A stretch of 64,000 nucleotides of DNA from Ptychodera flava (GCF_041260155.1 NC_091939.1:23835744-23899743); one strand, 5' to 3'. Shown: positions 3,669 to 61,900, counted from the stretch's first letter. Made by a program: numbers and translations. Notes: generated by a model not told the origin, from the sequence alone.

Positions 3669-4087
3669 CTATTAAAGAGAGAGAGAAAAAAAAGAAATGT
3701 GACTGAGATTTGAGTGCCAGACTTGATGATAAAGTAGTACTGACACCAGCTGTCAGTATTTCATAACCCACTTTAGTTAGTTTGCACCTCCTTGATTCCA
3801 TTGAGATGGAAGAACATGAATACTGTTGAAATGGGGCGTCAAGGTTAAAAAGGTCCACAGGTCCCAAACTTCTTACCCTTAGGTATCTGCACTCAGGCCT
3901 ATTCATTGAAAACACTTGAACTACAGAAAATTATGGCCAGGTGGGTGTTACGTGAACCTGTCTCTCTCCAGTTAATTTGATGTGACAAAGTCATTCAATG
4001 GCATCATCTTTGCTTGTGCTTTGACACTGTGCTCATACTTGCAGCAAAGAAAGCAATACTTTCTGAGAGTAAATTGATTTGAAGTAA

Positions 4088-22597: not shown

Positions 22598-24720
22598 TAG
22601 AAATAACGGGCGACGCGCTGACCATTAACGTTTATTTATGGGCAAGGGCGAGAGGAAAGCCAAAAATTAACGGGCGAGGCTTGCCGAGCCCGTTAATTTG
22701 GCTTTCCTTGAGCCCGCGCCCATAAATAAACGTTAATGGTCAGAGCGGAGTCTGTTATTTCCATTATATTATCAACGAACCGAAGAAAACCGTCAAAATT
22801 TGTGAAAATTTCCGGAGTGAACGACAACTGGGCCCCAGAACTGAGCAATATGCAACAAATGTCACGCGCGCTGTAAAAAATTGGCAAATCTCGAGATATT
22901 TTCAGAAAAAAGTATCTCAACTTGGCCCACAAGTGCTCCATTTTATTTGTGGATTGATTATGATTTACGTTTGAGCTGTAAAGTTACGATACTTTGAGTT
23001 GTTAATCTTATTATGCATATTCCACGGCATGTAAACAGACCATTACTGTGTATTTGTGGTCAGTCACCGTGTTTCAGCTCGCCAATCAAAATGCGACAGC
23101 CAGGCATGGTAATATAATGCACATTATATTACCATGCCCTGTCCATCGCGTTTTGATTGGTCGAGCTGAACCATGTGACTGCCCACAAATATACAGTAAT
23201 GGTTTGTTTTTCGTGAATATGAATAACATCGTAAACATAGTAACTTTACAGTTAAAATGAAAATTGTGATTTGTACAAAGATCATAATCAACCACAAAAT
23301 AAAATGGAGCATTTGTGGGCCAAGTTTAGACGCTGTTTTTCAAAAAATACCGCAATTATACGGTGTCGCTCAAATTTGATCAGAATTGGTATATACCAGT
23401 ATGGGTTACCAATGATCAACAATAAATGTTGTTTCTATCTGTTCAGTGGAGGAAAATTCTACGTTGATGTTATGGCATGATTTCTGCACAGTACAACCAG
23501 AAAAACAACAAGAAATATTTAAACCAGAAAACAAGAATGACAAAAGTAACTAGAAAGCATTTGCAAGCAAAAGCGAAGTTCCAGAGACCAGAGCAACGGA
23601 AGAAACAAGAGAATGTGTGACAAAGATAGGTGCAGAATGAAAGAGTGCTTTGGATTTTAATATTCAACTTCAAGCACGTACCTATAGTTAAGGGCTGATA
23701 GCAGTGAACAACCAGAATACAACTAAAAGCAAGGCAGTCCGGGGAATTACAGTACACAGATTACAATGCCTACATGTACAATAAAAACGCAACAGATACA
23801 TACTGGGGCGACAACGCACGGAAATGTATATCAGACGACATTCTCGCGAGCCAGAGCAATAATTTTCGCTCCGCTGACCTACGCAAAAATCAATCGCTTG
23901 ACGGGTAGCGCTGAGTTGTTGCCGTAAAGAGGCGCGTCGTTTACGACGATGATCAGACGAGAGGAAACATCGGACCTAGGCCGTTGAAATTGAAAACCGA
24001 GGCCACATGCATTTTCATTTGATTAAAAGCACAGAATAAAACAATTTTTATTGCTATGTCGCTGTTTTCACAAGATACTGACCGTTTGATCTTGGAAAGT
24101 TGAGTTGCTTTTACGTGCAGCCAACGCATGCTGGTGCGGTGACAGACAGTTGACTATGAATGCCTAGCTCTGCATGGCAGGGCTGTGTTACCGGCGTTAC
24201 TGTAAACGGCCTCGCAGACTGATATAGGAAAAACCGCTGGTGGCTCCTCAGAAATACGGCGGGCAGTTTCTCCGCCAAAACAGCCGATTTTGAATCCAAA
24301 TTTTGCATTGAACTTCGTTTTCGAGCACACCCACCTCGCCTAGGTACACGATGTGCCCAGCCACGCTTGTAAACTTACGGAAAGCCTAATTTTCTCTCTC
24401 TATGCGAGCGAAGCGATCGTACCGCCGCCATTGTTATCTCATTAGCATTCGGGCGAAACAGTATAGCCACGTACGGCGAGTATTTAGAGAAAATCATAAA
24501 GCAACAAAAACAAAGCGTAAGAAAGCTAGAATTATTAATAGCTGAACGCAATATGATAGTTGAGCAATGCAAAATAAAAATAAATAAATAAACACACAAG
24601 AAATGCCCGTAAAACCCGTCCGAGCTGAGCGATGACGTCATAAGCGTGTTGCAATGCATTCTGGGTAATTAAGGTAAAATTTGTGTATAGCATGTTCTAT
24701 GATAGTAATACCGGAAATAG

Positions 24721-24763
<43 letters not shown>

Positions 24764-25578
24764 AGGAAAGTGAGCAAAAACTAACAGTTCCAGAGCTGGT
24801 CTCTGGAACTAATTAAGGTCTGAAACTTTAGGTACTGGAGGTCAACTTTAGCAACATGCATAGCAGAAACAAGCCCCTCTTAGTTTAGTATAAACGGTCT
24901 TCCCCCATCTACTGTCTATGGTTGCAGCTGGTCTGTTAATATGTAACAGTTCATAAACAATGACAGGAAATGAGTCAAGATCAGTGGAGTTTGCCTGTTT
25001 CTCACTGGTATGCCTCCTGCACATTTGCAGACTTTCACTTTTCTTACCTCATTTGCACATTTTTGACACTGATGTGTTCATTTGAACAAATTCACATCTC
25101 AACCCCTGCATCTACACTGTACCTGTACACCAAATACTGAGATGGTAGCTTTGGCGGTATGGGAGCCTTTGTGTGTGACGGACATACATCCGCACATACC
25201 CACAAATATACAGACATACAGACATGCAAATCAGATGCAAATGAACTGATTCAGCTTATACGATAACCTCACATTGGTACACCAAATGTGAGCTAAAAAT
25301 CTCTGGATTTGCAAAATTTTAGCAGCGCGCGCACTACTCACTGACAGGTTCTGGGGCCCCGTTGTCGTTCGCACGGGAAATTTTCGTAAATTTTGACGGT
25401 TTTTCGGGGTTCGTTGATAATGTAATGTAAATAACAGACTCCGCGCTGACCATAAACGTTTATTTATGGGCGCGGGCTCGAGGAAAGCCAAATTAACGGG
25501 CGGGGCTTAATTTTTGGCTTTCCTCTCGCCCTTGCCCATAAATAACGTTAATGGTCAGCACGTCGTCCGTTATTTCTA
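22598..25578. mobile_element. Foldback-like element of about 3 kb with about 275-bp terminal inverted units. Each unit holds a 60-bp-arm hairpin (ccataaataaacgttaatggtcag...). A 166-bp perfect palindrome sits at 23040-23205, with diverged extensions out to about 22900-23340.
   Basis: 22598-22870 is the reverse complement of 25310-25578. The palindrome centre is at about 23123. Listed ORFs 22693..22941(-) and 23271..23480(+) share MEHLWAK..., showing mirror translation of the arms. Confidence 0.6.
24716..24770. repeat. (GAAA)n microsatellite.
   Basis: Read directly. Confidence 0.95.
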
Positions 25579-31125: not shown

Positions 31126-31905
31126 CAACACTGCCTGCATGTGTGTGTGAGTAACGTCCAATGTGATTGGTGAGCAACACTGCCTGCATGTGTGTGTAAC
31201 ATCCGATGTGATTGGTGAGCAACACTGCCTGCATCTGTGTAATGTCCGATGTGATTGGTGAGCAACACTGCCTGCATGTGTGTAATGTCTGATGTGATTG
31301 GTGAGCAACACTGCCTGCATGTAATGTCCGATATGATTGGTGAGCAACACTGCCTGCATGTGTGTAATGTCCAATGTGATTGGTGAGCAACACTGCCTGC
31401 ATGTGTGGAATGTCTGATGTGATTGGTGAGCAACACTGCCTGCATGTGTGTAATGTCCGATGTAATTGGTGAGCAACACTGCCTGCATGTGTGTAATGTC
31501 TGATATGATTGGTGAGCATCACTGCCTGCATCTGTGTAATGTCCGATGTGATTGGTGAGCAACACTGCCTGCATGTGTGTAATGTCCGATGTGATTGGTG
31601 AGCAACACTGCCTGCATGTGTGTAATGTCTGATATGATTGGTGAGCATCACTGCCTGCATCTGTGTAATGTCCGATGTGATTGGTGAGCAACACTGCCTG
31701 CATGTGTGTAATGTCCGATGTAATCGGTGAGCAACACTGCCTGCATGTGTGTAATGTCTGATATGATTGGTGAGCAACACTGCCTGCATGTGTGTAATGT
31801 CCAATGTGATTGGTGAGCAACACTGCCTGCATGTGTGTAATGTCCGATGTAATCGGTGAGCAACACTGCCTGCATGTGTGTAATGTCTGATGTTATTGGT
31901 TACAA
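31126..31905. repeat. Minisatellite with an about 45-bp unit (TTGGTGAGCAACACTGCCTGCATGTGTGTAATGTCCGATGTGA) in about 17 copies.
   Basis: The periodicity is visible directly in the sequence. It produces several overlapping fake ORFs of 120-250 aa on the minus strand. Confidence 0.9.
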
Positions 31906-32029
31906 CTGAATTTCAGTCGAGACTAGAATTTATTTATCAACAATAATAATATTGCACATTGTACAAATGCTGCATCATGTTGTTAAGGCTTATATTTTGT
32001 TTGGGGACAAGGATAAGAAAGTGCATATG

Positions 32030-32989: not shown

Positions 32990-35341
32990 TACCAAACCAA
33001 GTGGGTGAAAATACATATGGTTTTGGCCCAATACCGCTTTTCAATGACTTGGCAGATGGGGAAGCGACATGTCTGGCAGGTAAAGCGTTAAATGAGCAAA
33101 TAATTAACGATGAGCATATTATACTAGCCAAACTTTCACCGTAATTAACCCTTTTCCTACCAGACAGTAATAACTGTATCACTTCCCTATCAGCCAAGTC
33201 AGTAAAAATAGCGCCAATGGCACTTGATCACAACTGGCACATTGTGAAACTACTCTATCTCTGGGTACACCTGTACATGAAATACTGAATGGGTAGGTGC
33301 TGCGGTTTGGAGTTTGTCAGTAAATGCACACAAAAACAAAGTCCCGAAGTAGCGAATTCCAGCCATTTTCAAACCACACTGTTTGTCAGTGGGGTAAGCA
33401 ATATTCACAAAAATCACATTTCCAGGCTAATAGACTATGTTTTACGAAATCACACGTCCTTATCACAAAATAAAACAATCTTTGTCTTTAAATCAATGCG
33501 CCAGTAAACAGGTCCAGCAGCTAGTTATGTCATCAAGTCTGTAATGTTAAGGTACTAACAAATGTGAGAAATCTAAAACATTAAATATGTTGATTTTTAT
33601 CAATTTTATTACCAAAAGCGCATGAAATCTCTGATACTTTGAATCAGCCATCCTGCATATTTCTAACATTCATCAAAACTCATTTCTGTTCCACAACTCA
33701 TTAATAGTCCACAATGCAGGATTGGTGTACATTCCAAAACTACATATATGAAAGACCCCTAAAATCAATTAGTTAAAGGGGGGTTAGAAATTTCCCAAAA
33801 CTATATAACCGCTGCTCCGTTTGGCTCCATTTTCGGAATCGGAACCTTGGAACCAGTCTGAATATCTGTACCAAATATCAATGCAGTCTGTTCAGCGGTT
33901 TTTTGACTTTTTGTCGTTTACGGAAAATGGACACTGTCCAAACACCGGTTGAAGCTAACCCTATATCACAACTTCCAGATGTGATAATGACCTATGGTCA
34001 TTATGTTAAAAATATACCGCCAATGGCGCATGGACATAATGACCGCCTAGTATTATTGGCATTTATCAACAACCACACTCACTGTGAATTAGACAGACCA
34101 CGAAGTCAATGAGCAACATATAGCTGAAAGACTATTTTTCACATTGCGATGTTAAGCTCATTTTTATGAGAAAAGAGACATGTATATGTATATGGAGAAA
34201 AAGCAGAAGACATATTTGTAAATTGTTTGTTAAGTGACAATCATATATGCATCTCTTGAAATTTTGTGGTTATAAGGTATAACACTAGTGTAAGAATAAT
34301 GAGGTTAGAATAAGTTAGTAAAGCTAAGTTGACAGTAATTAAGATTACAAATTATACACTAAGCTGGGTAAATCTGAATGAAATAAATGTTGAAAAGTAG
34401 CAAAGTCATGGTCATCTTTTGTCTAATACCTTGTGTAAGTTCATGAACTTTACATAAATCTTGCTGTAGATTTGTTGCTAATGGGCAATAACTGTGTTTC
34501 AGATCATTTGAGAGCAATCCATCCATGACAGCTTTAAATTGTTATGTACTTCTATTTAAAGGACAGAAACTTCTCAAATAATTTTTTTCCCTGTAATTTG
34601 CTGTGAGAACACATGGACAGATGCTCAGGACTCTATGCTGGTGCTACCTGATAACTAACCTACAACTTGTAACGTCATTGTCTAACCTGTTCACCCCCAA
34701 TTTCCTGTAGACAGGTCCACACTCTCCATTGATAACAATGGGTTTGGCCATACCATTGTAGTGAAAGACTGTAACATGTGAGGTTGTGGATACTTAATCT
34801 CTGGAATGTCAAAGTCTGTATATTGACTCAAGGATGTTTACTTAACAAATGCCTAGGGTCATCTCAAAAGTGAGAATCTAAACTATGAAATATGTTTTTT
34901 TTAATGCTTTTGATGCCCAAAAGAGCATAGAAATCTCTTATACTTCGAATCAGCCATCCTGCATATTTCTAACATTCATCAAAACCTCATTTCTGTTCCA
35001 CAACTCATAAAACAGTCCACAATGCAGGATTGGTGTACATTCCAAAACTACATATATGAAAGACCCCTAAAATCAATTAGTTAAAAAGGGGGGTTAGAAA
35101 TTTCCCAAAACTATATAACCGCTGCTCCGTTTGGCTCCATTTTTCCGAATTGGAACCTTGGAACCAGTCTACGTATCAGCATCAAATATCAACGCAGTCT
35201 GTTCAGCAGTTTTTGACTTTTTGTCGTTTACGGAAATGGACGACATCAAACACCGGTTGAAACCGTCTCTATATCACAACTTCCAGTTGTGATAAAAAGC
35301 GGTATTGAGCCAAAACATGACGTACCCACTTGGCTTGGTAT
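32990..35341. mobile_element. Element of about 2.35 kb with about 45-bp TIRs (cataccaaaccaagtgggt... / ...acccacttggcttggtatg). It contains a 430-bp internal direct duplication (33560-34000 and 34860-35300).
   Basis: 32990-33040 is the reverse complement of 35298-35341. The duplicated blocks are over 90% identical by eye. Confidence 0.45.
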
Positions 35342-46193: not shown

Positions 46194-46322
46194 TCAATGA
46201 AAATGTTCATGTTTTTTTTGAAAAATTGAATCGAACGCTTCGTATGCATACTCGAGCAAATTTATGGTCTGTATATACGTGTACGTACACATTAAATATT
46301 TCTAAAAAATCCTGATGTCACA

Positions 46323-46381
46323 TGTATGTATGTATGTATGTATGTATGTATGTATGTATGTATGTATGTATTATGTGTACG
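46323..46381. repeat. (TGTA)n microsatellite in the DPH1-opsin intergenic region.
   Basis: Read directly. Confidence 0.95.
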
Positions 46382-47140: not shown

Positions 47141-47222
47141 ATGCTACACTGGAACATTATCATTCCAGTCTCCCTCTCTTTCCTGGGGACAAACCAACAT
47201 GCAAGCATCTACTCTCTTGTCG
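47141..47222 (+). CDS. Opsin-like GPCR candidate exon 1, encoding MLHWNIIIPVSLSFLGTNQHASIYSLV plus g (N-terminus and the start of TM1).
   Basis: The ATG is in aaagATGc context. The donor TCG|gtaaat is in phase 1, which matches the phase of the acceptor at 48223/48225. Splicing yields a continuous TM1 (ASIYSLVGTFSVLGNGFVILHYAI). The N-terminus is short and has no N-glycosylation site, so this exon or its start codon may be wrong. Confidence 0.4.
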
Positions 47223-48224
47223 GTAAATCAAAGCACTGCGACGGACACAGTTGAAGATTTGGTTTTGGGGGAAACAAAAGAAAACAAAATCGTCTCTGGT
47301 TACCTTCTGTTAGTATGTGAGTAAACATTCTTTTTTTTGTATGTGTTTCATATGCTGAAATTTACTGTGTGACGTGATGTTATGTTCTTGTACATTGACG
47401 GCCGAATCCAAGAGTTCGATTGGATGTGTCCAAATGTAGCAAATTAATCGGCAGTTCAATGTGCTCATTAACTTATCGTACTGTGATGCGCGTCGTTAAT
47501 AGCCCTCATAAAAAACAAGAATGCGCGAATACGTTTTGAATGAACAACCCGAAAAGATGCTGGAATATTGTGATATTATAAAAGACGTGCCCCATTGATG
47601 GCTCAAAGTCGCTATTTTCTGGCATGTGAAGGAGAATGAAGTATCTTTCCTTATAATTTCCGCGTGAGCGTCGAAATTTAACCTCGGTGTGCCCACAGTC
47701 CCTCTATGTGTGCCGTATATTTCGAGTAGATTTGCAACGCGTTAGAAATTAGTCATTTATGGCGCGCTGATACTACAGAAATTACAGCAATTTGCCGTCC
47801 AAACAGGATAAGGTCTTTTGACATTGCTCTGACATTTACATGAGCTTGTAACAAGAATCAGCGACTTCCAAGATTGTCTGAGACTGGCAGCTCCCGTCAT
47901 CATGGAAAATATCAAGGGCAGGATTTACCAGACTTGTATATCAATTGTACATTCACACTCCAAAATCCATTACACATCCCAAAAGTACCCTGAAACAGGG
48001 CTGTGTGTGAGATCTGTAACGAAGCGAGTTTTCATGAAGATGTAAGCTTACACGTTTTATGTAGCAATATGAATGAAAAATTATCAAGCTCGCACCGATT
48101 TTACCTTAAATTATGATTGGTTGAAATAATGTTTAAACATAGTGACTTCATGTGTTATTACAAGTTTCCGAACGTAAAAAATAATGCATGCATGTGCCTT
48201 ACATTGGTTTTGCCGTCTATGCAG

Positions 48225-48518
48225 GTACGTTCAGTGTGTTGGGGAACGGCTTTGTCATTCTGCACTACGCAATCGCTCGGCCGAAGGTGATCAAACCGAT
48301 CGAGAAATACATCGTCAACCTGGCCTTTTCTGACATCGGCGTGTCGGTGTTAGGGTATCCCATCGTCGCCCTCAGCAACCTCTTTAGTACCCGTCACAAG
48401 AGCACTTTCGTCTGCTTTTGGGACGGCTTCAGTGGTTTTGTGTTCGGCATCGTGAACATCTGGACGGTGACGGCCATTGCGTGCTCTACATACCTGGCGT
48501 TACGCAAGCCCGGATTTG
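48225..48518 (+). CDS. Opsin-like GPCR exon, encoding (G)TFSVLGNGFVILHYAI...NLAFSDIGVSVLGYPIV...VCFWDGFSGFVFG...IACSTYLALRKPGF plus g (TM1 to the end of TM3).
   Basis: Class A hallmarks are present: GN in TM1, NLAxxD in TM2 and the TM3 disulfide Cys. An in-frame stop at 48182 prevents upstream extension, so the acceptor ctatgcag|GT at 48223 is proposed. The donor is TTTG|gtaaga at 48518/48519, in phase 1. An alternative 5' end is Met 48188. Confidence 0.8.
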
Positions 48519-48785
48519 GTAAGATGAACTTTGAATTCTTGGCGAATAATGTACCGAAACATGAAGTATTACATCATGATTTTTGCCTTTTTGTACGTGT
48601 TTTACGTTTTCCCGAATATTTTCTGACTTTGGGGGTTCTGGGTAGATGTTTTCATGAGCAGTTCGGGTTTTTTGATGACTTCGTTCGGACCCCGTGTGCC
48701 ATGGAAGATTAATGTCTTATTGGAAAAAAGATGTAGAAACATGGGTTATTTATGTTTCAATTTAAATGATATGAACGAATAAATT

Positions 48786-48870
48786 GATGAATGAATGAAT
48801 GAATGAATGAATGAATGAATGAATGAATGAATGAATGAATGAATGAATGAATGAATGAATGAATGAATGA
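48786..48870. repeat. (GAAT)n microsatellite of about 21 units, in opsin intron 2.
   Basis: Read directly. It produces the fake FIHS-repeat ORFs 48746 and 48762 (-). Confidence 0.95.
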
Positions 48871-50384: not shown

Positions 50385-52110
50385 ATTTAGGGAGCGTTCA
50401 GTTATTAGGGGGGGGGGCGGCAAATTCTTCCTGCGCATCAGTCAAAATAAGTGAACCCCCTACCAATTGTACCAAAAAATTGATGACCCCCCTTTTGAGA
50501 TGTCAAAAATTTCATGACCCCCCACATTGCTTGAGTAAAGCTGCACACACAAACACCTGGGGGGTATGGAGCGATAGAATCCAAACAAAAAGAGCTTAGA
50601 TTTTTTTAAATATTCCTTACAAACTCACAAGGTGTTAATGCTCAGATTTCCCCTTCTGACTTGCTATAATTTTGAAATTACCCTTCAAAGGGGTTGGACA
50701 CACACTACAGGTGGATTGCAATATTTTTGCGTAAGCATGTGTGTACAAAATTTTGATATTTGGATTTAATTGATAATTAGCTGTTGATAATGTTGATTCA
50801 CTATACATAGTAATCTATGAGAAAACTATGTAATACTTTTTCAATGCAAAACTATTTCTATGCATAGATATTTGATAATTTATATAAATGTACTAAATGA
50901 AATAGGGTAATACCGTTGTTACAACTGGCATGTGGACAAAAAGTTTGACTTTAGAATTTCACCAAAAATGTTCATCCACTATACATGGGAATCAATGATA
51001 AAATTGTGAATAATTTTTTTTCTAATGAAAAACTTGGTATACTTATGCATATACAGACGTTCAATAATTAAAATAATTGTACTTGATTAGAATATGATGC
51101 ATATTATGTGTATAAGAAATCTAGTTATGGAATTTCACTGAAAATGTTCATCCACTACACATGGGAGTCTATGAGGAAAGTATGAATAATTTTTTTCCAA
51201 TACAAAAATAGGTTAACCCGTGTATTTATGTACTCGATTATTGATATTAATGTACTTGATTAGATTAGGGTGGTAACAAATGGGTGTGTTCGCCAGAAAT
51301 TGGATTTTGGAATTATACTAAAATGTAGATTCACTGTACATGGGAGTCTATGAGGAAACTATGAATAATTTTTTTCCAATACAAAAATATCAAAATCTGT
51401 GTATTTGTAGACATTTGATAATTCGTTTTAAAGTACTTAGTTAGCCTAGGATGGTTAAAGGTTGATATGTGTGCAAGAAATCGGATTTTGGAATTTCACC
51501 GAAATGTTGATTCACTGTACATTGGAGTCTATGAGAAAACTAAGAATAATTTTTTACAATGCTAAACTAAATTAATTTGTGCTTTAATAGGTGTTTGATA
51601 ATTGGTCATACAAATGTACTTGATTCAAATAGGGTATTTGAAAGTTCAATGGATGAGGACAACATTTATGATATTGGAATTTCACCTAAAAGTATTTTTC
51701 ATGGTACTAGTAGTCTCAGTACAGGTAACTGTTAAATAATTTCCCTGGCAAAACTTGCTATACCTCTAATATGTAAGTAATAGGAATTGTTCATTGCCCT
51801 CAGTGAGCTCGATTTACAATAAGACTGGCCTCAGAGTTGCCTAGTCAAGATGTGACGGATAATTATACTTTTGTTCAGATTTACAGTTAAATGACTTCAG
51901 AGAATGAAATCATGCAGCGAATCATTTTTATCTCCCAGAATATTTCTGAACATTGAAACTGCTTTTTGACGGGATGTATACTTAGGAAAATTAAGTGACC
52001 CCCCCTCTGAGCTGTTTGAAAAATACATGACCCCCATTTGCAGTTTTCAAATTTGAGGTGACCCCCCTGGATTTTGCCGGCCTACCCCGGCCATAATAAC
52101 TGAACGCTCC
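50385..52110. mobile_element. TIR element of about 1.7 kb inside the opsin intron. It has about 40-bp TIRs (agggagcgttcagttattagg...) and subterminal GTGACCCCCC triplets, and encloses a 215-bp tandem satellite.
   Basis: 50388-50425 is the reverse complement of 52072-52110. The flanks are TA-rich, so a TA target-site duplication is possible. Confidence 0.55.
50740..51720. repeat. Tandem satellite with an about 215-bp unit in about 4.5 copies (ggaatttcac[ct]aaaaatgttcatccactatacatgg...).
   Basis: Consecutive units are spaced about 215 bp apart, for example at 50945, 51135, 51320 and 51495. Confidence 0.7.
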
Positions 52111-52777
52111 CTTATGTACACCAGTTCTGGACATCTGGTTAAGAATAGAAAATGTGAAATACATTCATAGCTTATTCACGATACTGTTTTCACACTTTAA
52201 AATTGAAAATTTGAAATTCCTATACGACAACTGACATGTCAACTATTTCACTAAAACACAGAATGGTAGAATGTTGAAAATTTAACTATATATAACCATA
52301 TATAACTAATAACTATATTTAACTATATATAACTATATATAATTATAACTATATAATTTATATTTCACCTTTTCGTTTTACCTTAATCTTTGTCTTTTCT
52401 CGGGGGCGGTTCACCCTGTTTTCGAAAGTTGGAATGGAAGGGGGAGGTTTCACTTTTTTATGTTTCGACAAAAAATTATTCAGCGGCCCCAAGGCCGAAG
52501 AACTGACCCGTCCCTTATGTCTGTCTGTATGTCAGTGTCTCTTCACATCTGTTATTGGTCTGCCTTTCCTCTCTTTCTGTCACGGTCTATCTCAGTCACT
52601 GTCGGCCTGTCTCTTTATCTCTGTCTCTCTCTCCATCTACATGTATCTATCTCTCTTGATTCGCACTTTTGGATGATACATACGCAGGGAGCCCAAAAGC
52701 AACTTATTTTGAAAGAAAACACATACTAAGAATATCAAAAATATTCATGTAGATTTTCCTTATCACTTTCCCTCTAG

Positions 52778-53529
52778 GTAAACGCTTCCAAACGGGGCTA
52801 GTTCTCGTTCTCATTTGGATTTTAGCCCTTCTGTGGAGCGCATTGCCAATGTTCGGGTTTGGTTCCTTCAGAGTAGAAATAAACGACCTCTTCTGCTCGT
52901 TAGACTGGAGTGGGCGACATCCGTTGAACGTCACCTACAACGCCGTCTCTGTAGTGATGTGCTACGTCGTACCGCTGACCTTGACAGTCACAGCTCACAC
53001 TCTGACGTACCGATATCTGGCAAAAGCACGCGCGGTCATCTATTTGGATGTCGATTTAGCCAGTGGTAGGGTGCAGGCAAAAAAGGAATCGACTGATATA
53101 GGTACGCCTAACGCACAACCACGCCCTTGCGTGCGTTCTGCCCGCAGGGCTACTCTCAAAAGTCACGAGAGGGCTATCAGGAAAGCCAGCATGGCCGTGT
53201 CTGCCGCGCTCTTCATCGCCTGGACGCCATACGCAGTGTTGGCAATATACACAAGCTTGGCCCGAGTGGTTAATTTTTCCTTTATTGGCGTTACCCTACC
53301 AGCTCTTTTCGCCAAGACAACATGTGCGGTGAACCCGATCACGTACCTCATCTTCGATCGCCAATTCCGTCTGCGAGCAGCGACCAAGACTTGTGCATAC
53401 ATCCTGACTTGGCGGAAACCACAGTCATCCAACGCAAAGACGAGCACAAGATCAGTTGTGAACGGCGTCATGTATCAATGTAGCGAGAGCGTCTTGAAAT
53501 ATCAACCGAGTGCTACAGCAGATAAGTGA
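52778..53529 (+). CDS. Opsin-like GPCR terminal exon (TM4-TM7 plus C-terminus), ending KTTCAVNPITYLIFDRQFR...SATADK followed by the stop codon.
   Basis: The acceptor cctctag|GT at 52776-77 joins the exon-2 g to give Gly-Lys-Arg. The translation carries the ECL2 Cys (DLFCSLDW), Glu at the E181-equivalent position, AWTPY in TM6 and FAKTTCAVNPITY with the retinal Schiff-base Lys in TM7. It aligns along its length with rhodopsin and melanopsin. The stop TGA is at 53527-29. Confidence 0.85.
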
Positions 53530-54989
53530 CCAATTTTTTCAACTATTTAACATCCAGTAATTATCCTATGGAAGGACATTTGGAAGAGAGAATCTGCTCC
53601 ACAGTTGACAACGACGGCACGAAACCTAGCGCACACATCGAACAGTGCAGTGATTCGGAATCCATGCGGTCTGTTTTAAAAGTGTGAGTGTAAATAGGTG
53701 TATGTTGGTTGCTGATTTCCGCGGAAAAGCGAGAACATGCTCTCCAGTTTCTATTTGTAATATTTTTTTAAAAATTATATCGAAACTGTAAGGATTTTTG
53801 AAATTGTATTACCTTCTACAATGCAGGGCATAAAGTATCTTGGAGCGAAAAACATGAATGAAAGAATGAAAGAACCGCGCATAATATTTAAACTTTCAAT
53901 TTTCGTTATTATTGTCAACTAGCAATTGTGACATCACTTGTAAGCTTAGTCACTGCAAGAAAATGTTCGTATCAGCGAATGAACCGCTGAAAAGAAATAC
54001 TGAAAAAGATTGCCAGATTGAACTGAACAGAGAGAAACAGAGTAACTGCATCGAACTTCAACGAGCTCCACGAACAAGAAGCTGAACCCAAACTTCCTCA
54101 AGAAGCACAGAATTACCTTACGAACAAACGTAAAGACATTTCGTTGGTGCGATAAGAACCATTAGAAGATTATATAACTCAAGAAGCACAAACTCACAAT
54201 GAACGCTTGGACAAAAAAAAAATTACATAGTTAAGTGTACATTTGTTATCCACTTTCTAGTTTCGTGCAAATTTTAGAAGAGCGTTTAAGTTACTGTAAG
54301 CGTTCTTTTGTCGATCATTTTCAGAACATATCTTTCCGCCTCAGTCAAACCACTAGATTCTATATGACGATCATTGATCACCACTAGTGACAATTCGAAT
54401 ATGCTTTTCTCATAGAAAGTTCTTTGTCCGAAATCCCAAATGTTTTGCTTTCGCTGGAAAGCAGAGACTCACGTTTTGTTTCGTTCTAAACCCGCTATCC
54501 TGCACATACATGTAGGAATAAACTGTTGTACATACTGTAGGTCATATACTTTCTCTCTTGAATGTGAGAATAGAGTTTAGGAACACCACTGTTGGTCTCT
54601 ATTTGGGTTTAATGCTAAGCCAGCGTGTTTTTAGTAAGATTTACGAATAGGTTCTACTTTATTTAATATAGAGCTGACGGCAAGCCAAGAAATGGTAACA
54701 AGAAGATGCACAAAATCCGCCATCCATATGCCTACACGCTATTTACTATTATTTCCAGAGGCGAAACGAGCCCAATTATTCCACGCCAAAGACGCGAGGA
54801 TTATGTAGGTTAATAGCGATCATGCGTTTTACGATTTTGAATCACACGTGAATCAAACTTTCTTTTAAAGAAACATATTTTGTCATAATCCTAAACTCCA
54901 AGGGAACCGACGAACTATTTAAAACACAGGGCCAAAGTCCCTGAAGCTACTATAGACATGGATACAAAATTAAGTATTTCCTGACTGTT

Positions 54990-55085
54990 TGAAATTATCT
55001 CACTAAGGTCATGCTAGGGATATGTAAACCAAATATTAAAGCTGTCTGATCAGCGGTTTTGAAAAAACAAGCGACTCAACAGTTG
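54990..55085 (+). repeat. Partial third copy of the SINE-like body.
   Basis: The block aaagctgtctgatcagcggtt and its flanks resemble 55275-55330. Confidence 0.4.
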
Positions 55086-55221
55086 ACAGAGCTCTGCTGT
55101 GTTATGTAGAGAATAACCTTTTGTGACACATCTAGTGATGAAGAAGGTGGATATCTTTGATAGCTCATTTCAGGATGGCCTGACCAAAAATGAAAAAAAA
55201 AAATTCCGTAAAAATACAGAT

Positions 55222-55530
55222 TTGCATATTTCATCACAATTTTAACAAATCTAAGTTGGGTTATCCCTAGGGACCTGTATACCAAATAACAAAGCTGTCT
55301 GACCAGTGGTTATGAAGAAGAAGATTTTTTACCAAAAACGCCTTTTTTGGTGCTAATTTGCCTATTTTCAACAATATCAAAAATTAATAAAAAGAGTTTC
55401 TCAAAATCATGTATTTTATCCACACAACAAATCTCAAATCAGTAACTACTGCAGTTCTCAAGATATTTGACGGACACCTCACAAACGGACATACATACAT
55501 ACATACATACATACATACATACTACATACA
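55222..55530 (+). repeat. SINE-like 280-bp unit plus (ACAT)10, immediately 5' of the LINE fragment.
   Basis: It is near-identical to 58507-58790 (ttgcatatttcatcacaattttaacaaatctaagttggg...ctcacaaacggacatacatac). Confidence 0.7.
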
Positions 55531-56216
55531 TACATTCCATAGCAGGCAGTAGCAATAATGCCACGGCTATCTGGCGTGTTTACAACAATTTGATCAATGT
55601 AAATAACTTTAAGGATCCTACATTTATATCGAATGGGGTTTGCTTTGAAAACCACTCTGAGATTGCTGACGCTTTCAATAAGCATTTTGTAGGTATCAGT
55701 CACTGTACTGATGATTCCAATGAACCTGTTAATCTGGAGTCATTACGTAAGTTTATAAATACGGTATTATGTGATGTACCGTCTTTCAGTTTTCCTTTAC
55801 TGAAGAATGATTTTGTTTGTAAATCTTTACAAGAAGCCAAATGCACGGGTATTGACAATGTTAACTGTAAGCTCTTAAGAATTGCTGCACCTGTAATTTC
55901 AGCTACTCTTACTTACCTTTTCAATAAGAGCTTGGATCATGCTATTTTCCCCAGAGTCTTTAAATGTGCTAGAGTTGTTCCCATTTACAAAGGGACTGGT
56001 AACATCAGTGATATGTCTAACTATCGTCCTATTTCAATTTTACCAGCTCTTTCGAAAATCATTGAAAGACATGTGTACAACTCTTTTTTTGAATATTTAT
56101 CTATGTTTAATCTTCTTTTCGATACTCAGTCTGGTTTTAGAAAGAACTACTCATGCCAAACAGCCCTAATCCGTTTAACAGATAAATTTTGTGTAATGTT
56201 GACAGTGGTTATTTGA
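55467..56216 (+). pseudogene. LINE reverse-transcriptase fragment (N-terminal RT domains); a disrupted ORF beginning inside a microsatellite.
   Basis: See the mobile element above. The first about 20 codons are a translation of (ATAC)n. Confidence 0.75.
55489..55535. repeat. (ACAT)n of about 10 units, at the LINE 5' junction.
   Basis: Read directly. Confidence 0.95.
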
Positions 56217-56328
56217 ATAGTGTACTCCTGCTTGATCTATCAAAGGCATTTGATCTTATAGATCATGAAATTTTGCTTGCTAAACTACATGTTTATGGGC
56301 TATCTGATGGAGTGATTAACTGGTTTAG

Positions 56329-57348
56329 ATGTTATCTCTCAAATCGTCACAGATTGTAGATTACATGGGTAGTAGATCGACTATTTGTCGTGTTACCACA
56401 GGTGTGCCGCAAGGGTCTATTTTAGGACCTTTACTTTTCATGATATTTATTAATGATATGACATTGTCTGTTGATTCCTCCACCCTCCACATGTATGCTG
56501 ATGATCAGACACTACTTACAAAGGGAAAGTGTATTAGTGAAGTCAATGATGCTGTAAATCGTGATATTTTACCAATTTCTAATTGGATAACCAATAATCA
56601 TATGCGTATAAACGCAAGGAAAACTAAGTGCATTTTGATAACTTCACCTTTTATGTTGGGTCATTTGAATAATTCCGATGTTTCATTGTCTATAGAGATA
56701 GCTGATACCAAGATCCCCAAAGTTATTTCAGGGGAGATTTTAGGTATATCTTTAGATGAAACCTTATCCTGGGATGTTCATATTGATAATTTATGCAAGA
56801 AATTGAGTATGCGCATTGGATTTTTACGTAAACTTCGTACTTACATTCCTTTTGATCAGCGGTTAGTACTGTACTATGGTCTATTCCAGAGTATTCTTGA
56901 TTATTGCTGTGTAGTTTGGGGAAACACAACAGTTAAGAATATTGATAAAGTGTTTATACTTCAGAAACGAGCTCTACGCACGCTTTTTGAACTTCCGTTT
57001 GATTTCCCTTCAGTGGATTTATTTTCATTACTTAATGTCATGTCTGTCAGACAAAGAATATTTTACTTCACCGCAATTGAAACATTTAAATGTTTGAAAG
57101 GGTATGGTCCACAGTATTTATCTGATTTGTTTACCGCTCAGAGTGATGTACATAGTCATCATACACGGTCTACTTCTCGCCAGGATTCTTATGTACCTAG
57201 ATGCTTCTCTAAATATGGTCAACGTAGCTTTCAATACCGTGCTGCCAAACTGTGGAATGCTTTACCAATTGAAATCAAACAAACTACTGTTCTGTACACC
57301 TTTAAATCTGACTTGAAAGATTATGTGAAAATGAATGTTCCTTTGTAG
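56329..57348 (+). pseudogene. LINE reverse-transcriptase fragment (RT domains 4-7 plus the C-terminal domain).
   Basis: GVPQGSILGPLLF and YADDQTL are present. It is in a different frame from the upstream part. Confidence 0.75.
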
Positions 57349-57433
57349 ATGTAATTATTGTTATTTTGCTTGAGCCCCGATGAAAATTACTGTACAAGTA
57401 ACTCGGCCGCTCAATAAAAGTGTAAATAATAAA

Positions 57434-57592
57434 TACATACATACATACATACATACATACATACATACATACATACATACATACATACATACATACATAC
57501 ATACATACATACATACATACATACATACATACATACATACATACATACATACATACATACATACATACATACATACATACATACATACATAC
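57434..57592. repeat. (ATAC)n microsatellite of about 40 units, at the LINE 3' end.
   Basis: Read directly. Confidence 0.95.
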
Positions 57593-58506
57593 TGACAGTG
57601 CACGCCGGACAGATACCCATCCCAATAGCTTCTATAGACTATATTAGTCTATAGTAGCTAATAAACGAGAGTTAATTACATTCTAATTAAAGTAAACAAG
57701 ACTTGCTTAAATCAAGATTTTCATCATAAAAAACAGCATATCTGTCAGGTTATAAAGAATCTTCAGCTGGTTATCTTTTTATCAGTATTTTCATCCTATT
57801 AACCAAGCACATTTTAACTTTCAAATTAACATAGTAAGTTCTGTTGAATAAGTTGAGACTGTACGTACTCAGAGAAAGCACACTGAAGAGACAAATGTTT
57901 GAAACGTAAGAAGTTCAAGGTCATCAAAAGCATCATGTAACACTTTTAATTGCACTGTTTACACAGATTGCATAATTGCTATAAATAGAACATGAGGAAT
58001 CTTACAGCCCAGCTTTACCATAAAAAATCCTATCACTTTGACCACTCTTTTAATTGATCACTCTATTTTTTTCCTCAAAGAGTAATTTTATTTTATCCTT
58101 ACCAAGTCAACCATGAATGGAAATTAGAACTTTCTCTATCTCTATTTATTTGACCACCCTATCATGACAAACTATTTTGAGCAATTTCTTTTAGATAACA
58201 TACAGGGCACAATAAATGACGGTTCAGAATATGTCAAAGTTGGGATTCAGGAAAGTTGCCTTTACATGTTTTAATCCTCCAAGGTGGTAAGCATTTCACT
58301 ATGAACTGTCAAAAAAAGTTGAACTTTCTGATAATTCTACACTAAAATTATTTTGGCTTTGATGATTTCCTAATTAATTCAATTATTTAAAATCATATTA
58401 ATTATTTTTTCTGGGTGAATTGATAGGGTTTATACAGTACAAGAATTACATACAATGTAAGTCAAATTTTGATCAAAAATGACAAAGCAAATTCCTTAAT
58501 ACACAT

Positions 58507-58920
58507 TTGCATATTTCATCACAATTTTAACAAATCTAAGTTGGGTTGTCCCTAGAGACCTGTATACCAAATAACAAAGCTGTCTGACCAGCGGTTATGA
58601 AGAAGAAGATTTTTTACCAAAAACGCCTTTTTTGGCATTAATTTGCCTATTTTCAACAATATCAAAAAATTAAAAAAAAAAAGTTTCTCAAAATCATATT
58701 TTACGTCTTCACAACAAATATCAAATCAGAAAGTACTGCGGTTCTCAAGATATTTGAGTGGACGGACGCCTCACAAACGGACATACATACATACATACAT
58801 ACATACATACATACATACATACATACATACATACATACATACATACATACATACATACAGACTGACGACGGACGCCGGACGGATACCCATCCAAATAGCT
58901 TCTATAGACTATAGTCTATA
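58507..58920 (+). repeat. Second copy of the SINE-like unit: 280-bp body, (ACAT)20 and a 65-bp tail shared with the LINE 3' end. This is the empty-site paralogue.
   Basis: The body is the same as 55222-55490. After the microsatellite, the tail gacgccggacggatacccatccaaatagcttctatagactatagtctatagtagcta matches 57595-57660. Confidence 0.7.
58782..58858. repeat. (ACAT)n of about 19 units, in the empty-site paralogue.
   Basis: Read directly. Confidence 0.95.
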
Positions 58921-61900
58921 GTAGCTAAAAATGATCGAGGTCATTTCCTATTTTGAAATTCGCCAATATCATAATCCTCAAAAAGTAAAATTTCACCCTC
59001 CTTAGTTTTCATTATTGTCATGTCTCTATTGTTCTGCCTTGCTGGTACTGATTCATATTCTAACATTTCAACGATTTCCGAGAAATTGGCTTCCTTCAAA
59101 GCAACATATCCCACGCAATTTCACTCGATTGAGACAAAAACAATAGAGGCGCCATAAAATACCAGCACAGGGGCAACAGCTCGTTTACTCATTTAAAAAC
59201 CCACCAAATACCTTTAACTTCTCATGGAGGAAATCTTCATACCTTCATGTCTAACTTTATCTTATTGAGCTAGCTATTAACATCGTTAAATTCATTCATG
59301 GCGTGGGTTTGAAACGATAGAATTGTGGCATGCCGCGTACTGGCAAGTACGTTTATAATTTTCAATTCTTCAACACATCGTCCATTCGTATCACAAACTA
59401 GTGGTAACAGTGGGTTTTAGGCACGGCCAAAGAGTTCCCCCTTTCACACTTGTTTTATTCTGTGATGCATTTTGGTAGTTTCTTCAGTATTTCAATATTG
59501 CTTATTGTACAATTTTCAACTTTGAAGAAATGTTTTATTCACATTCGTCTTTACCTTCTCCATCGCCCGTTTGTACCTTTGCTACCAGTTGTTACCCCGA
59601 AGAAGGCAACCAGTGGGTTGCCGAAATGGCGGTGTTTTATCAATAAAATTTTGAAGTTCGAACCTTCCGGTTGCAGTCTCATTTTTACCATACCTACTGT
59701 CACGGTGATTTCATTTCATTTTATTTGTTGCCTTTCTCCCAAATTTGAGATATGACACCTGATTTGGTTCTTGCTTCATACAAAAAGTATTGCATAAATT
59801 TTCCATGAGGAAAGTTTGAGAAAGAGTTTGTTTCGAGGGCTGCCAGCAAATTACAAAGTTGGTCAAAATATGTATTACTATACCTGGAGTCAACGCTTTG
59901 GTTAAATATACCAGTGCAAAAACAGGCCCCTCAACTAGCATAGAATTTTAACGTCGAAATATATGGCATAAAATGGAAACGGCGTTATCGAAACCAATTA
60001 AATGACTAAATACACGGAGGCAATTGAAAGCGCATCTTAAACGCCTTTCAGTTTGCTTCTAAGACTGCCTTTGATTATGAGACCATTTTAATGAGCGGTA
60101 CGCCAAACCAGTGCGACGTTGCGTTTGTCACTTCCACTGCACCCTTTTTGCTCGAAAATACTCCATGTGGGTACTATACGCTCCATCTAGCCCCGCGCAT
60201 ACAGCTGGTGGTGTATGCCTAGGGAGCTCAGGACCAGCAGTTGTCGTACAATGAACAAGAAAAGAAACAAAAAGTACGATTATTATTTGCACACTGTAAG
60301 ATTTAACATCCACAGACCTAGTTAAAACCTCCCCATGGTTTCGCTCAGTACGCCATAGTACTATCTGCACTTATACATATGACAAAACCCAATGGCGAGA
60401 TAGTGCAAATGCGACGTCCTCGAGATCTGTGCACCCTGGGTTCGCACGAGGGCTTGCGTAGTATCCTGTGGCCGTCCCCGCACGTACGTCGAGCGAGTAC
60501 GGCTAAATAATTATTATTCAGGTAAGTACCAATCGTTCTCATTGTTGCATGTTGAGATATTTCGTTAACTCATAGGAAATAACCAGAAAATAACAATGAA
60601 TGGCAAATACAATAATATTGCATTTGCCGATTGACAGGGGAGGGGACGGGGTAGAGACAATGTGTTCCACCATAGACCCTCGCGAAGGTCCATGGTTCCA
60701 CCCATGTTTCCCCACCCTAGCGGCAATTTCGCTATGTAGAGTACTAAATACATACGAGATAAAATGTCCTCCCCTTTTTCCTCTGGCGCTCGGATCGATT
60801 TAGATCACGCTCGAAAAAGGCATACTTTATATCGGCGTTTGTTTGTTTCGGAATAAAATTGTAAGGGACCGCATATCTAATTTGTTACCGTCTGTTATAA
60901 TTTATCAACATTCTAAAATATCAATCTCGATGTTACCACGAAATGTTTTCTGTAACAGGACTTTGCTCTATCACAATTCAGTGGCAGTACGTTTTCGACG
61001 ATTTCATAAGCCAATACGGTCTTTTTTGACAGGTGTTTTGATCGTTTCAGACTGTTTCCGTACTATTTTTTTGGACCGTTTATTGTTCGTTTTGGCTCGT
61101 TTGAACTTTACCAATTTATAGCCAATTAGAATTTTTTGGCACACGCTTTGCCATATAATACAAAATCTTTAGTTACTTAATTTTGTCGTCTGCTGGATTT
61201 CCGCAGCTATTCACTTCGGCTACACGTCACATTTAGTTTCTCCTTTTTGGGTACCTAAGCTGCAAACCCCTTACAGTGAAAGGAACAGCCATGATAGGAC
61301 ATTCGCTTTTTGGTGCAAATTGCTCCACATTGCATGAGTCGCTACCTGTCTGCCGTGGAGGCTATTGCTTGATAGAAACCATCGGAAGATTGAAAAAAAT
61401 CCTGAAAAATCTTCACATGCAAATGTCCGCAAATGATAACAAATCTCATCAAATATATTCCTTAAAACAGACGCACATAGTGACTGGACCAGTTCCTGCT
61501 TTTTCCCTTGTTTTAAATCTTCTTTGCATATTGTTGAGACTGGCAAATTTGTTTGGACAAATTTCGAGCTAGAACCAATAACATCTTCAGAACAAATGGT
61601 AAGGTGATAAATACCAGAGTTTGAGTGTTGTGAAAAAAATGTACAAGCATGCATGCATACTTACAGACAGACATCCAGACCAGCGACAATGACTGGTCCT
61701 TATAGCTCCAAATTCTATACATATATCTAGATAATGCCAGTTAAATAGACAACAAGCAACTTAAACATTTTAAGAAATATTTTATTTGGAAATAACAATT
61801 GCTTGAAAATGCAGATGTATGTACTTCTTCAGTAATATGACATAATCTATTTATAAAGATTGCATACTTTACAATTCTCTTGTAACAAGAACTATCTACA

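Follow-up and report, generated by a model that had tools for sequence, protein, structure and literature searches.

How did a fragment of a long interspersed nuclear element (LINE) encoding a reverse transcriptase (RT) come to lie between two tracts of one tetranucleotide microsatellite, when a related arrangement without it stands only 0.8 kb away in the same orientation? The question is raised by positions 55,222 to 58,920 of a 64-kb stretch of the genome of the hemichordate Ptychodera flava (GCF_041260155.1 NC_091939.1:23835744-23899743), the whole of which was analyzed and is referred to here as the window; all coordinates are those of the window and refer to its plus strand unless marked. 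A first-pass annotation made from the sequence alone had recorded an RT fragment with ACAT/ATAC junctions and a LINE-free second copy, and all of these parts are present, with small corrections to their coordinates. The locus is an ordinary nesting of mobile elements. We consider it likely that the repeated unit around the LINE is a non-autonomous Helentron-associated DNA transposon (HINE) lying on the minus strand, with the LINE nested later in its microsatellite. This corrects the earlier reading of a pair formed by a LINE and a short interspersed nuclear element (SINE), as the microsatellite and the "tail" beyond it would make up a DNA transposon on the other strand.

Two copies of a repeated unit, one split by a LINE fragment

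The unit consists of a ~308-bp body, an (ACAT)n microsatellite, and a ~69-bp tail, and is read here as a minus-strand element. Copy 1 spans 55181-57661 and copy 2 spans 58474-58928, with 87–89% identity between them. The bodies (minus strand, 55185-55488 in copy 1 and 58474-58780 in copy 2) are homologous over 55181/55185-55488 and 58470/58474-58780 (~308 bp, 88.6–88.8% identity, E ~1e-93); the 280-bp body first placed from 55222 and 58507 is indeed common to both copies, but it is longer than described, its start having been set too far to the right. The tails (57593-57661 and 58860-58928) match over ~69 nt with 86–87% identity, and both close with ...GTCTATAGTAGCT-AA, beyond which the flanks diverge. 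Since the DNA outside copy 1 and copy 2 is unrelated on either side, the two are separate insertions and not a segmental duplication.

Microsatellites were called using Tandem Repeats Finder (TRF). Copy 2 is LINE-free and holds an uninterrupted (ACAT)19.8 tract (~20 units, 58781-58859), whereas the microsatellite of copy 1 is split by a 1.9-kb LINE fragment into a proximal (ACAT)12.0 part at the left LINE junction (55489-55535; the junction was fixed by protein alignment to the LINE protein P0001, described below) and a distal (ATAC)41.0 part at the right junction (57429-57592, 99% matches). We did note a single interruption in the left tract (ATAC-T-ACAT, 55520-55535), three units ahead of the LINE 5′ junction, possibly a scar left by integration or at a target-site duplication (TSD) boundary. 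The direct ATAC tracts on either side of the LINE would be a plausible substrate for deletion, and copy 2 had been proposed as a derivative of a LINE-bearing copy whose LINE was lost via recombination or slippage between them. This origin is very improbable, and unparsimonious, given that the flanks of copy 2 are unrelated on both sides and that its body and tail have diverged by ~11% from those of copy 1; a LINE-bearing copy would first have to be copied, LINE included, to a new site, and the LINE itself is a typical 5′-truncated, one-off TPRT (target-primed reverse transcription) product.

The copy 1 body comprises ~1.6 degenerate tandem monomers (55185-55375 and 55376-55488) with a conserved core, ACCAAATAACAAAGCTGTCTGACCAGYGGTTATGAAG, which is also found in further repeats of the window. 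Local and multiple alignment revealed an extra, diverged central repeat unit in copy 1 only (minus strand, 54962-55184), in which 54962-55066 shares 72% identity with 55214-55319 of the body (z 17–19 against shuffled sequences). By multiple alignment, the central repeats of copy 1 form three degenerate tandem units of 245, 191, and 113 bp, with the common core ACCAAATA.CAAAGCTGTCTGA.CAG.GGTT.TGAAGA. Homology of copy 2 to copy 1 ends at 58470-58474, and the copy 2 body has no left-hand inverted repeat.

Between its two tracts, copy 1 carries RT-coding sequence (55536-57428; Pfam RVT_1, E=4.8e-30). Using Pfam and protein alignment, we identified at 55536-57348 (plus strand) a LINE ORF2 fragment comprising part of the linker, the RT, and the C-terminal domain, with no endonuclease and with two frameshifts, owing to which the RT fragment is read in three successive frames; the stop codon (57346-57348) is followed by an 80-nt 3′ untranslated region (UTR). 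The closest relatives are two marine-metagenome proteins, P0001 (926 a.a.) and P0002 (897 a.a., 59% identity), both carrying an Exo_endo_phos (APE) domain N-terminal to RVT_1. The fragment aligns to residues ~327–917 of P0001 with 67% identity (range 61–69%) and, because this alignment begins only at ~residue 327, the window copy is 5′-truncated and lacks the endonuclease, i.e., it is the usual dead-on-arrival product of TPRT. More distant RT matches were found in Pinctada and in metagenome-assembled genomes of lucinid symbionts, the latter read as contamination.

The 3′ UTR of the LINE (57349-57428, plus strand) contains a stem-loop (GAGCCCCGA...TCGGCCGCTC), AATAAA, and a short A/T-rich tail of its own, TAAATAATAA, of the TAAA/TAA type, which separates the conserved UTR from the ATAC tract. 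Homologous 3′ UTRs are present in three related LINEs. In the contig encoding P0002 (L002), the 3′ UTR aligns at the nucleotide level to 57349-57428 (TGAGCCCCGATGAA.ATTACT...TCGG.CGCTC.ATAAAAGTGTAAATAA), and the LINE terminates in ...AAATAAATAAATAAAA, with (TAAA)3 as its tail, followed by unrelated, non-repetitive DNA. Two more distant relatives share the stem-loop module: in L004 it is followed by a (TAA)7 tail and then unrelated, non-repetitive DNA, and in L005 by at least six TAAA units, the contig stopping within the tail. The consensus fold of the four 3′ UTRs is a stem-loop (L002 3024-3098, L004 2276-2352, L005 1902-1976, window 57362-57432) with compensatory double changes in 5 of its 14 pairs and AATAAA plus (TAAA)n or (TAA)n after it, kept across elements whose protein identity falls to 44%. 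Neither GAGCCCCGATGAANATTACT, sought in viral contigs, nor a UTR pattern allowing gaps, sought in contigs of prokaryote genomes, led to further LINE 3′ ends.

The first-pass label of a CR1/L2-like LINE is reasonable; our own placement draws on domain order, C-terminal motif, and 3′-end type rather than on a tree. Like the CR1/L2-type "stringent" LINEs, this LINE has APE and RT domains in its full-length relatives, the motif ...RSFxYxAxKLWNxLP, which we take to be of CR1/L2 type, and, in place of poly(A), a tail of short tandem repeats, (TAAA)n or (TAA)n, after a covarying 3′ stem-loop; it differs in that the window copy is truncated and decayed. UnaL2 is an example of a stringent LINE with a 3′ stem-loop and a short tandem-repeat tail.

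Neither the (ATAC)n tract nor the 65-bp tail, both of which had been assigned to the 3′ end of the LINE itself, is present at the 3′ ends of the three related LINEs (0/3), and the LINE 3′ UTR shows no similarity to the repeated unit. The microsatellite and tail hence belong to the unit and not to the LINE. This bears directly on the proposal that the unit is a SINE mobilized by the LINE RT with a borrowed 3′ tail (microsatellite plus 65 bp), which had been suggested by the position of the (ATAC)n tract and tail directly downstream of the LINE 3′ UTR in copy 1. Besides the missing 3′-end homology, no tRNA, 5S, or 7SL head is present in the unit: ARAGORN found no tRNA head, and Rfam (E<=1) returned only sub-threshold mir-297 matches to (GTAT)n itself, far below the gathering score. 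Runs of T6 within the body would, moreover, terminate RNA polymerase III (Pol III). Since it has no Pol III head and carries these T6 runs, the unit is not a SINE, and its tail is instead one arm of an inverted-repeat pair with a hairpin typical of DNA-transposon ends. On both defining features of the borrowing proposal, Pol III head and shared 3′ end, the outcome was negative as far as this could be tested, and we regard it as scarcely credible.

Architecture and class of the unit

For the tail, the best reading is that a minus-strand element has its 5′ end here. In copy 1 (57627-57661, minus strand; pattern search and DNA folding), this end opens with TT and a 13-nt subterminal inverted repeat (subTIR), AGCTACTATAGAC (57659-57647), followed by a 7-nt loop and an inverted repeat, GTCTATAGAAGCT (57639-57627), and next to it lie a degenerate microsatellite and spacer (57593-57626, minus strand; TGAC AGTGC ACGCC GGAC AGAT ACCC..., GTCY-like on the element strand). 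The copy 2 tail (58860-58928, minus strand) comprises a degenerate ACAG/ACTG/ACGG tract (58860-58896), a hairpin with 13-bp arms and a 4-nt loop (58897-58926), and a terminal AA, which is TT on the element strand. The tail hairpin is near-perfect over 13 bp (AGCTtCTATAGAC-loop-GTCTATAGtAGCT, then AA), with AGCTtCTATAGAC separated from the subTIR by 7 nt in copy 1 and 4 nt in copy 2; folded as single-stranded DNA and compared with shuffled sequences, it scores z -4.0 in copy 1, where there is one mismatch, and z -5.3 in copy 2. Between (ACAT)n and the hairpin, we noted a degenerate tetranucleotide array, ACAG ACTG ACG ACGG ACGCC GGAC GG, reading GTCC GGC GTCC GTC GTCA GTCT and then (GTAT)n on the element strand. 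Copy-to-copy homology stops 2 nt past the subTIR (TT on the element strand), and the 5′ junctions (...GTTTA/TTAGCT in copy 1, ...CATTT/TTAGCT in copy 2) lie in T-rich flanks.

The exact 13-mer AGCTACTATAGAC occurs three times in the 64 kb, once in plus orientation, at 54945, and twice in minus orientation, at 57647 and 58914; 0.84 matches are expected when up to two mismatches are allowed. The plus-strand occurrence (54945-54957) is the exact reverse complement of 57647-57659 and gives copy 1 a 13/13 inverted-repeat pair, its 3′ subTIR lying 228 bp to the left of the point where the likeness between the copies stops. An exact 13-mer is expected by chance within 1 kb at ~1e-5 to 1e-4. A candidate 3′ palindrome (54927-54943, minus strand; CAGGG-7 nt-CCCTG, then TGTTTT on the element strand) was read directly from the sequence. 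No direct repeat (TSD) abuts the 13-nt pair in copy 1, whose exact 3′ terminus is unmapped. The left end of the body was also considered as a degenerate 3′ subTIR region, which would have provided copy 2 with a natural terminus, and was rejected, the local alignment stopping short of the region.

On the element strand, the order of modules in copy 1 is TT, subTIR, loop (4–7 nt in the copies), complementary inverted repeat, GTCC/GTCA/GTCT...(GTAT)n, tandem repeats, inverted subTIR, and candidate palindrome, an order that, up to the inverted subTIR, matches the definition of HINEs point by point. By this architecture, the unit is probably a small, non-coding Helentron-type transposon. The left flank of a HINE is composed of a 5′ subTIR (11–12 nt), an inverted repeat 1–12 nt away, and a 4-nt microsatellite, often GTCY; in the Cg_HINE elements of Crassostrea gigas, tandem repeats follow, then a ~60-bp right flank of 3′ subTIR and palindrome, with TT insertion and no TSD (Vojvoda Zeljko et al. 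2020, PMC7492417). The unit has the 13-nt inverted-repeat pair (copy 1), the TT start, the inverted repeat 4–7 nt away, the GTCY-like microsatellite, and the tandem repeats. It resembles Cg_HINE in module order, and Cg_HINE shows an eroded, short tetranucleotide microsatellite (GTCY/GTCC/GTCK) closing its left flank and T-rich insertion sites without TSD (PMC7492417). The two differ in host (mollusc versus hemichordate) and have no established homology; the central repeats of the unit are few and degenerate, only one of its copies shows the 3′ flank, and where the Cg_HINE microsatellite is short, that of the unit has moved to (GTAT)n and enlarged to 20–53 units.

A second comparison is offered by the pearl (CvA, CvE, CvG) and DTC84 elements of bivalves (Gaffney et al. 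2003; Satovic and Plohl 2013, PMC3879986). DTC84 and pearl are composed of a left flank (L), core repeats, (ACGG/ACGA/ACTG)n, and a ~50-bp right flank (R), with AA at the termini (PMC3879986). The plus strand of the unit has exactly this layout, i.e., an L flank, core repeats, an (ACGG/ACTG/ACAG-type)n tract, and a ~50-bp R flank with inverted repeats and a final AA. The dominant motif of the unit is instead ACAT, and the likeness is one of layout and not of sequence. The DINE-1/INE-1 elements of Drosophila and the HINEs of mites and mosquitoes (Thomas et al. 2014, PMC4067079) show 13-bp subTIRs, with an inverted repeat 3–22 bp away from the 5′ one, and contain a microsatellite, central repeats as an optional part, and a 3′ stem-loop, with TT as the target; in their published 5′ junctions, a host T-run (...TT) is followed by TT(T)-subTIR (PMC4067079, Additional file 2). 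The unit shares these traits apart from the 3′ stem-loop, for which it has only a weak candidate, and it lacks the DINE-1 core; its subTIR appears closer to the putative 3′ end than the 38–60 bp noted for DINE-1/HINEs. In HLE2, TIRs of 11–18 nt, a T-T insertion site, and a 3′ stem-loop have been described (PMC11417382).

The window contains a second, unrelated family with a HINE-like 5′ end (25121-25296, minus strand). TTAGCT opens this end, and a 10-bp hairpin (AGCTCACATTTGG / AATGTGAGGT) is followed by a degenerate tract of (GTNN)n and by a segment resembling the core, CCTGTACACCAAATAC. The minus-strand start of the family at 25296 reads ...GATTT followed by TTAGCTCACATTTGG-loop-AATGTGAGGT, after which come the GTNN array and core-like segment, and no 3′ inverted repeat was found for it. 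The terminal hexamer TTAGCT is common to this family and both copies of the unit, and the architecture of the second family supports the assignment of the unit to the HINE class.

Several points weigh against this assignment. The 3′ palindrome, 1 nt past the subTIR, is only 5 bp long, and although this stem appears in the DNA fold, its region is no more stable than shuffled sequences (z -0.4); copy 2 is without the 3′ inverted repeat, only its 5′ repeat being present; and 54945-55184 could be part of an adjacent, older fragment of the unit's family and not of copy 1. The evidence consists of two copies of the unit in the window and one fragment of a second family. Sequence similarity to the oyster Cg170/HINE repeats is also not established: in a comparison of the body with Cg170/Cg_HINE monomers, only a ~20-nt patch, GAAGAAGATTTTT, aligned (z 3.6–4.4), other comparisons gave z<2.2, and this candidate homology was rejected.

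The unit might instead be of a non-Helentron class, for instance a MITE that moves by cut-and-paste or part of some larger, unclassified repeat bearing a microsatellite, which would leave the nesting of the LINE unchanged. The weak palindrome, the lack of a second inverted repeat in copy 2, and the absence of a Helentron partner in the window would fit such an element, and the original description of DTC84 and pearl was likewise as MITEs (PMC3879986), with reassignment to HINEs coming later (PMC4067079). We consider this unlikely, given the absence of a TSD abutting the 13-nt repeats of copy 1, the point-by-point agreement with the HINE definition in the modules from TT to the inverted subTIR, and the presence of a second family in the window with the same TTAGCT-hairpin-microsatellite start. 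The first-pass description of a SINE-like unit gives way to a Helentron-associated architecture on the opposite strand.

Further copies of the unit were sought by the pattern CTATAGAC-N2-9-GTCTATAGTAGCT in viral contigs and JGI metagenomes. There was no match in viral contigs, and the sole metagenome match (L003) was an unrelated, AT-rich contig, rejected as a chance match. The concatenated six-frame spurious ORFs of the unit gave no match in the protein database at E<=10. Reports of Helentron Rep/helicase proteins include the hemichordate Saccoglossus (PMC4067079), and these proteins are all for which the phylum Hemichordata was noted in the searched literature; a search of the literature for hemichordate HINEs and for the unit's sequence strings found no paper. 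Most likely, the unit belongs to the HINE/pearl/DINE-1 kind, as a hemichordate member with no earlier description. It would document in a hemichordate the HINE/pearl-type architecture of a hairpin-bearing 5′ end, a GTCY-derived microsatellite, and tandem repeats.

Nesting of the LINE in the microsatellite

Most likely, the LINE landed in the microsatellite of a pre-existing element. Entry of the LINE into the microsatellite of an existing unit was one of the readings first proposed, and this part stands; the tail-directed targeting of matching microsatellites that came with it is unsupported, as the LINE tail is TAAA-type and L002 and L004 lie in non-microsatellite DNA. Microsatellite-targeting APE-type LINEs are known, including Waldo (ACAY), Mino (AC), Kibi (TC), Koshi (TTC), and Dong (TAA; PMC3812793), and the LINE in the window, itself of APE type, likewise sits inside a microsatellite of the ACAY class. 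Families of the Waldo type insert in their repeat as a rule (PMC3812793), whereas the LINE in the window is a single instance, its relatives with visible flanks lie in ordinary DNA, and its tail is (TAAA)-like and not ACAT. Consistent insertion in one motif, as in Waldo, was not seen in L002 and L004, a comparison that concerns relatives only.

A targeted landing would involve a P. flava LINE subfamily whose (AUAC)n RNA tail or ACAT-preferring endonuclease led it to the (GTAT)n strand, with pairing between tail and target during TPRT; HINE-borne microsatellites would be among its targets, and part of the 41-unit tract would be LINE-derived. Such a process could account for both LINE junctions lying within the microsatellite and for the length and perfection of the distal tract at the LINE 3′ end (41 units, 99% matches, versus 12 and 20 elsewhere), and ACAY-targeting APE-type LINEs such as Waldo do exist (PMC3812793). 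A P. flava LINE subfamily with its own (ATAC)n tail may also exist, which would count against the microsatellite being wholly that of the unit. We nonetheless hold targeting to be improbable. The LINE has its own TAAA/TAA-type tail, TAAATAATAA, ahead of the ATAC tract, the three relatives finish in (TAAA)n or (TAA)n (followed in L002 and L004 by non-repetitive DNA), the possible microhomology amounts to ~3 nt only (ATA), and a preference is not demonstrable from one insertion. A shade less probable again is the specific version in which the subfamily evolved an (AUAC)n-compatible 3′ end or endonuclease preference that favored (ACAT)n tracts scattered by HINEs, with part of the 41 units made at integration. 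If true, a targeted landing would mean that one transposon family supplies "safe-harbour" landing pads for another.

For nesting without such targeting, we infer how the unit moved, in what sequence the events took place, and where the 41 units came from, as follows. A HINE-type element with a built-in ACAT/GTAT microsatellite would have inserted at both loci, presumably by rolling-circle transposition driven in trans by a Helentron, as its architecture suggests. The RNA of a CR1/L2-type LINE, with a (UAAA)-like tail, would then have undergone reverse transcription where the GTAT strand of the copy 1 microsatellite was nicked, with at most ~3 nt of microhomology (AUA/TAT) available. Reverse transcription would have stopped about one third into ORF2, and the LINE copy would later have decayed, acquiring its two frameshifts. 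Insertion into a tandem repeat explains why ACAT tracts form both junctions and why no TSD can be discerned. The 12+41 units of copy 1, compared with 20 in copy 2, may reflect a long pre-insertion allele or later slippage. Copy 2 would be an independent insertion of the unit family that never received the LINE and, because it has no 3′ inverted repeat, would be either a 3′-truncated transposition product or the result of a later deletion.

The locus provides one clear case of transposon-borne microsatellites serving as nesting sites that grow, here to (ACAT)20-53. It also holds a warning for marker development and repeat annotation in Ptychodera, as ACAT loci may have common flanks through carriage by a mobile element.

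Other repeats and genes of the window

The nested locus lies 1.4–5.4 kb downstream of the last exon of an opsin gene. We identified three plus-strand exons of a Go-coupled, rhodopsin-like G protein-coupled receptor (47199-47318, 48206-48523, and 52774-53526), sharing 100%, 94%, and 99.6% identity, respectively, with "rhodopsin, G0-coupled-like [Ptychodera flava]". These exons identify the host as P. flava and speak against a bivalve, to which the more distant RT matches had pointed. A satellite-like tandem repeat of about five copies of 176–186 bp (TRF consensus period 181 bp) occupies 50789-51693 in an intron of this gene; oyster HINEs carry short arrays resembling satellite DNA of a size like that of this array.

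A pair of 159-nt inverted repeats (22683-22841 and 25348-25506, 89% complementary) encloses ~2.8 kb and is probably a TIR DNA transposon, with the second HINE-like fragment lying just within its right arm. A ~400-bp repeat is present in two copies (33600-33990 and 34900-35300) with a ~40-nt core, ACCAAATATCAA.GCAGTCTGTTCAGCGGTTTT, as in the body of the unit, and the conserved core is thus common to otherwise different repeat families. Tetranucleotide microsatellites other than those of the unit were noted at 24716-24765 (GAAA)n, 46314-46373 (ATGT)n, and 48795-48870 (TGAA)n; palindromes (GTGTACGTACAC) lie close to the (ATGT)n tract, which shows no match to the unit. A minisatellite at 31146-32029 comprises ~20 copies of a 43-bp tandem repeat (TGTGTGTAATGTCCGATGTGATTGGTGAGCAACACTGCCTGCA...). 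Finally, an unclassified, high-copy interspersed repeat containing GAGTTAACACAGGGATGGCGGCCATTTTGAATTT occurs at least 10 times in the 64 kb, on both strands, with sites at 4083, 6518, 7936, 11837, 14759, 19779, 29858, 45991, 62870, and 63440.

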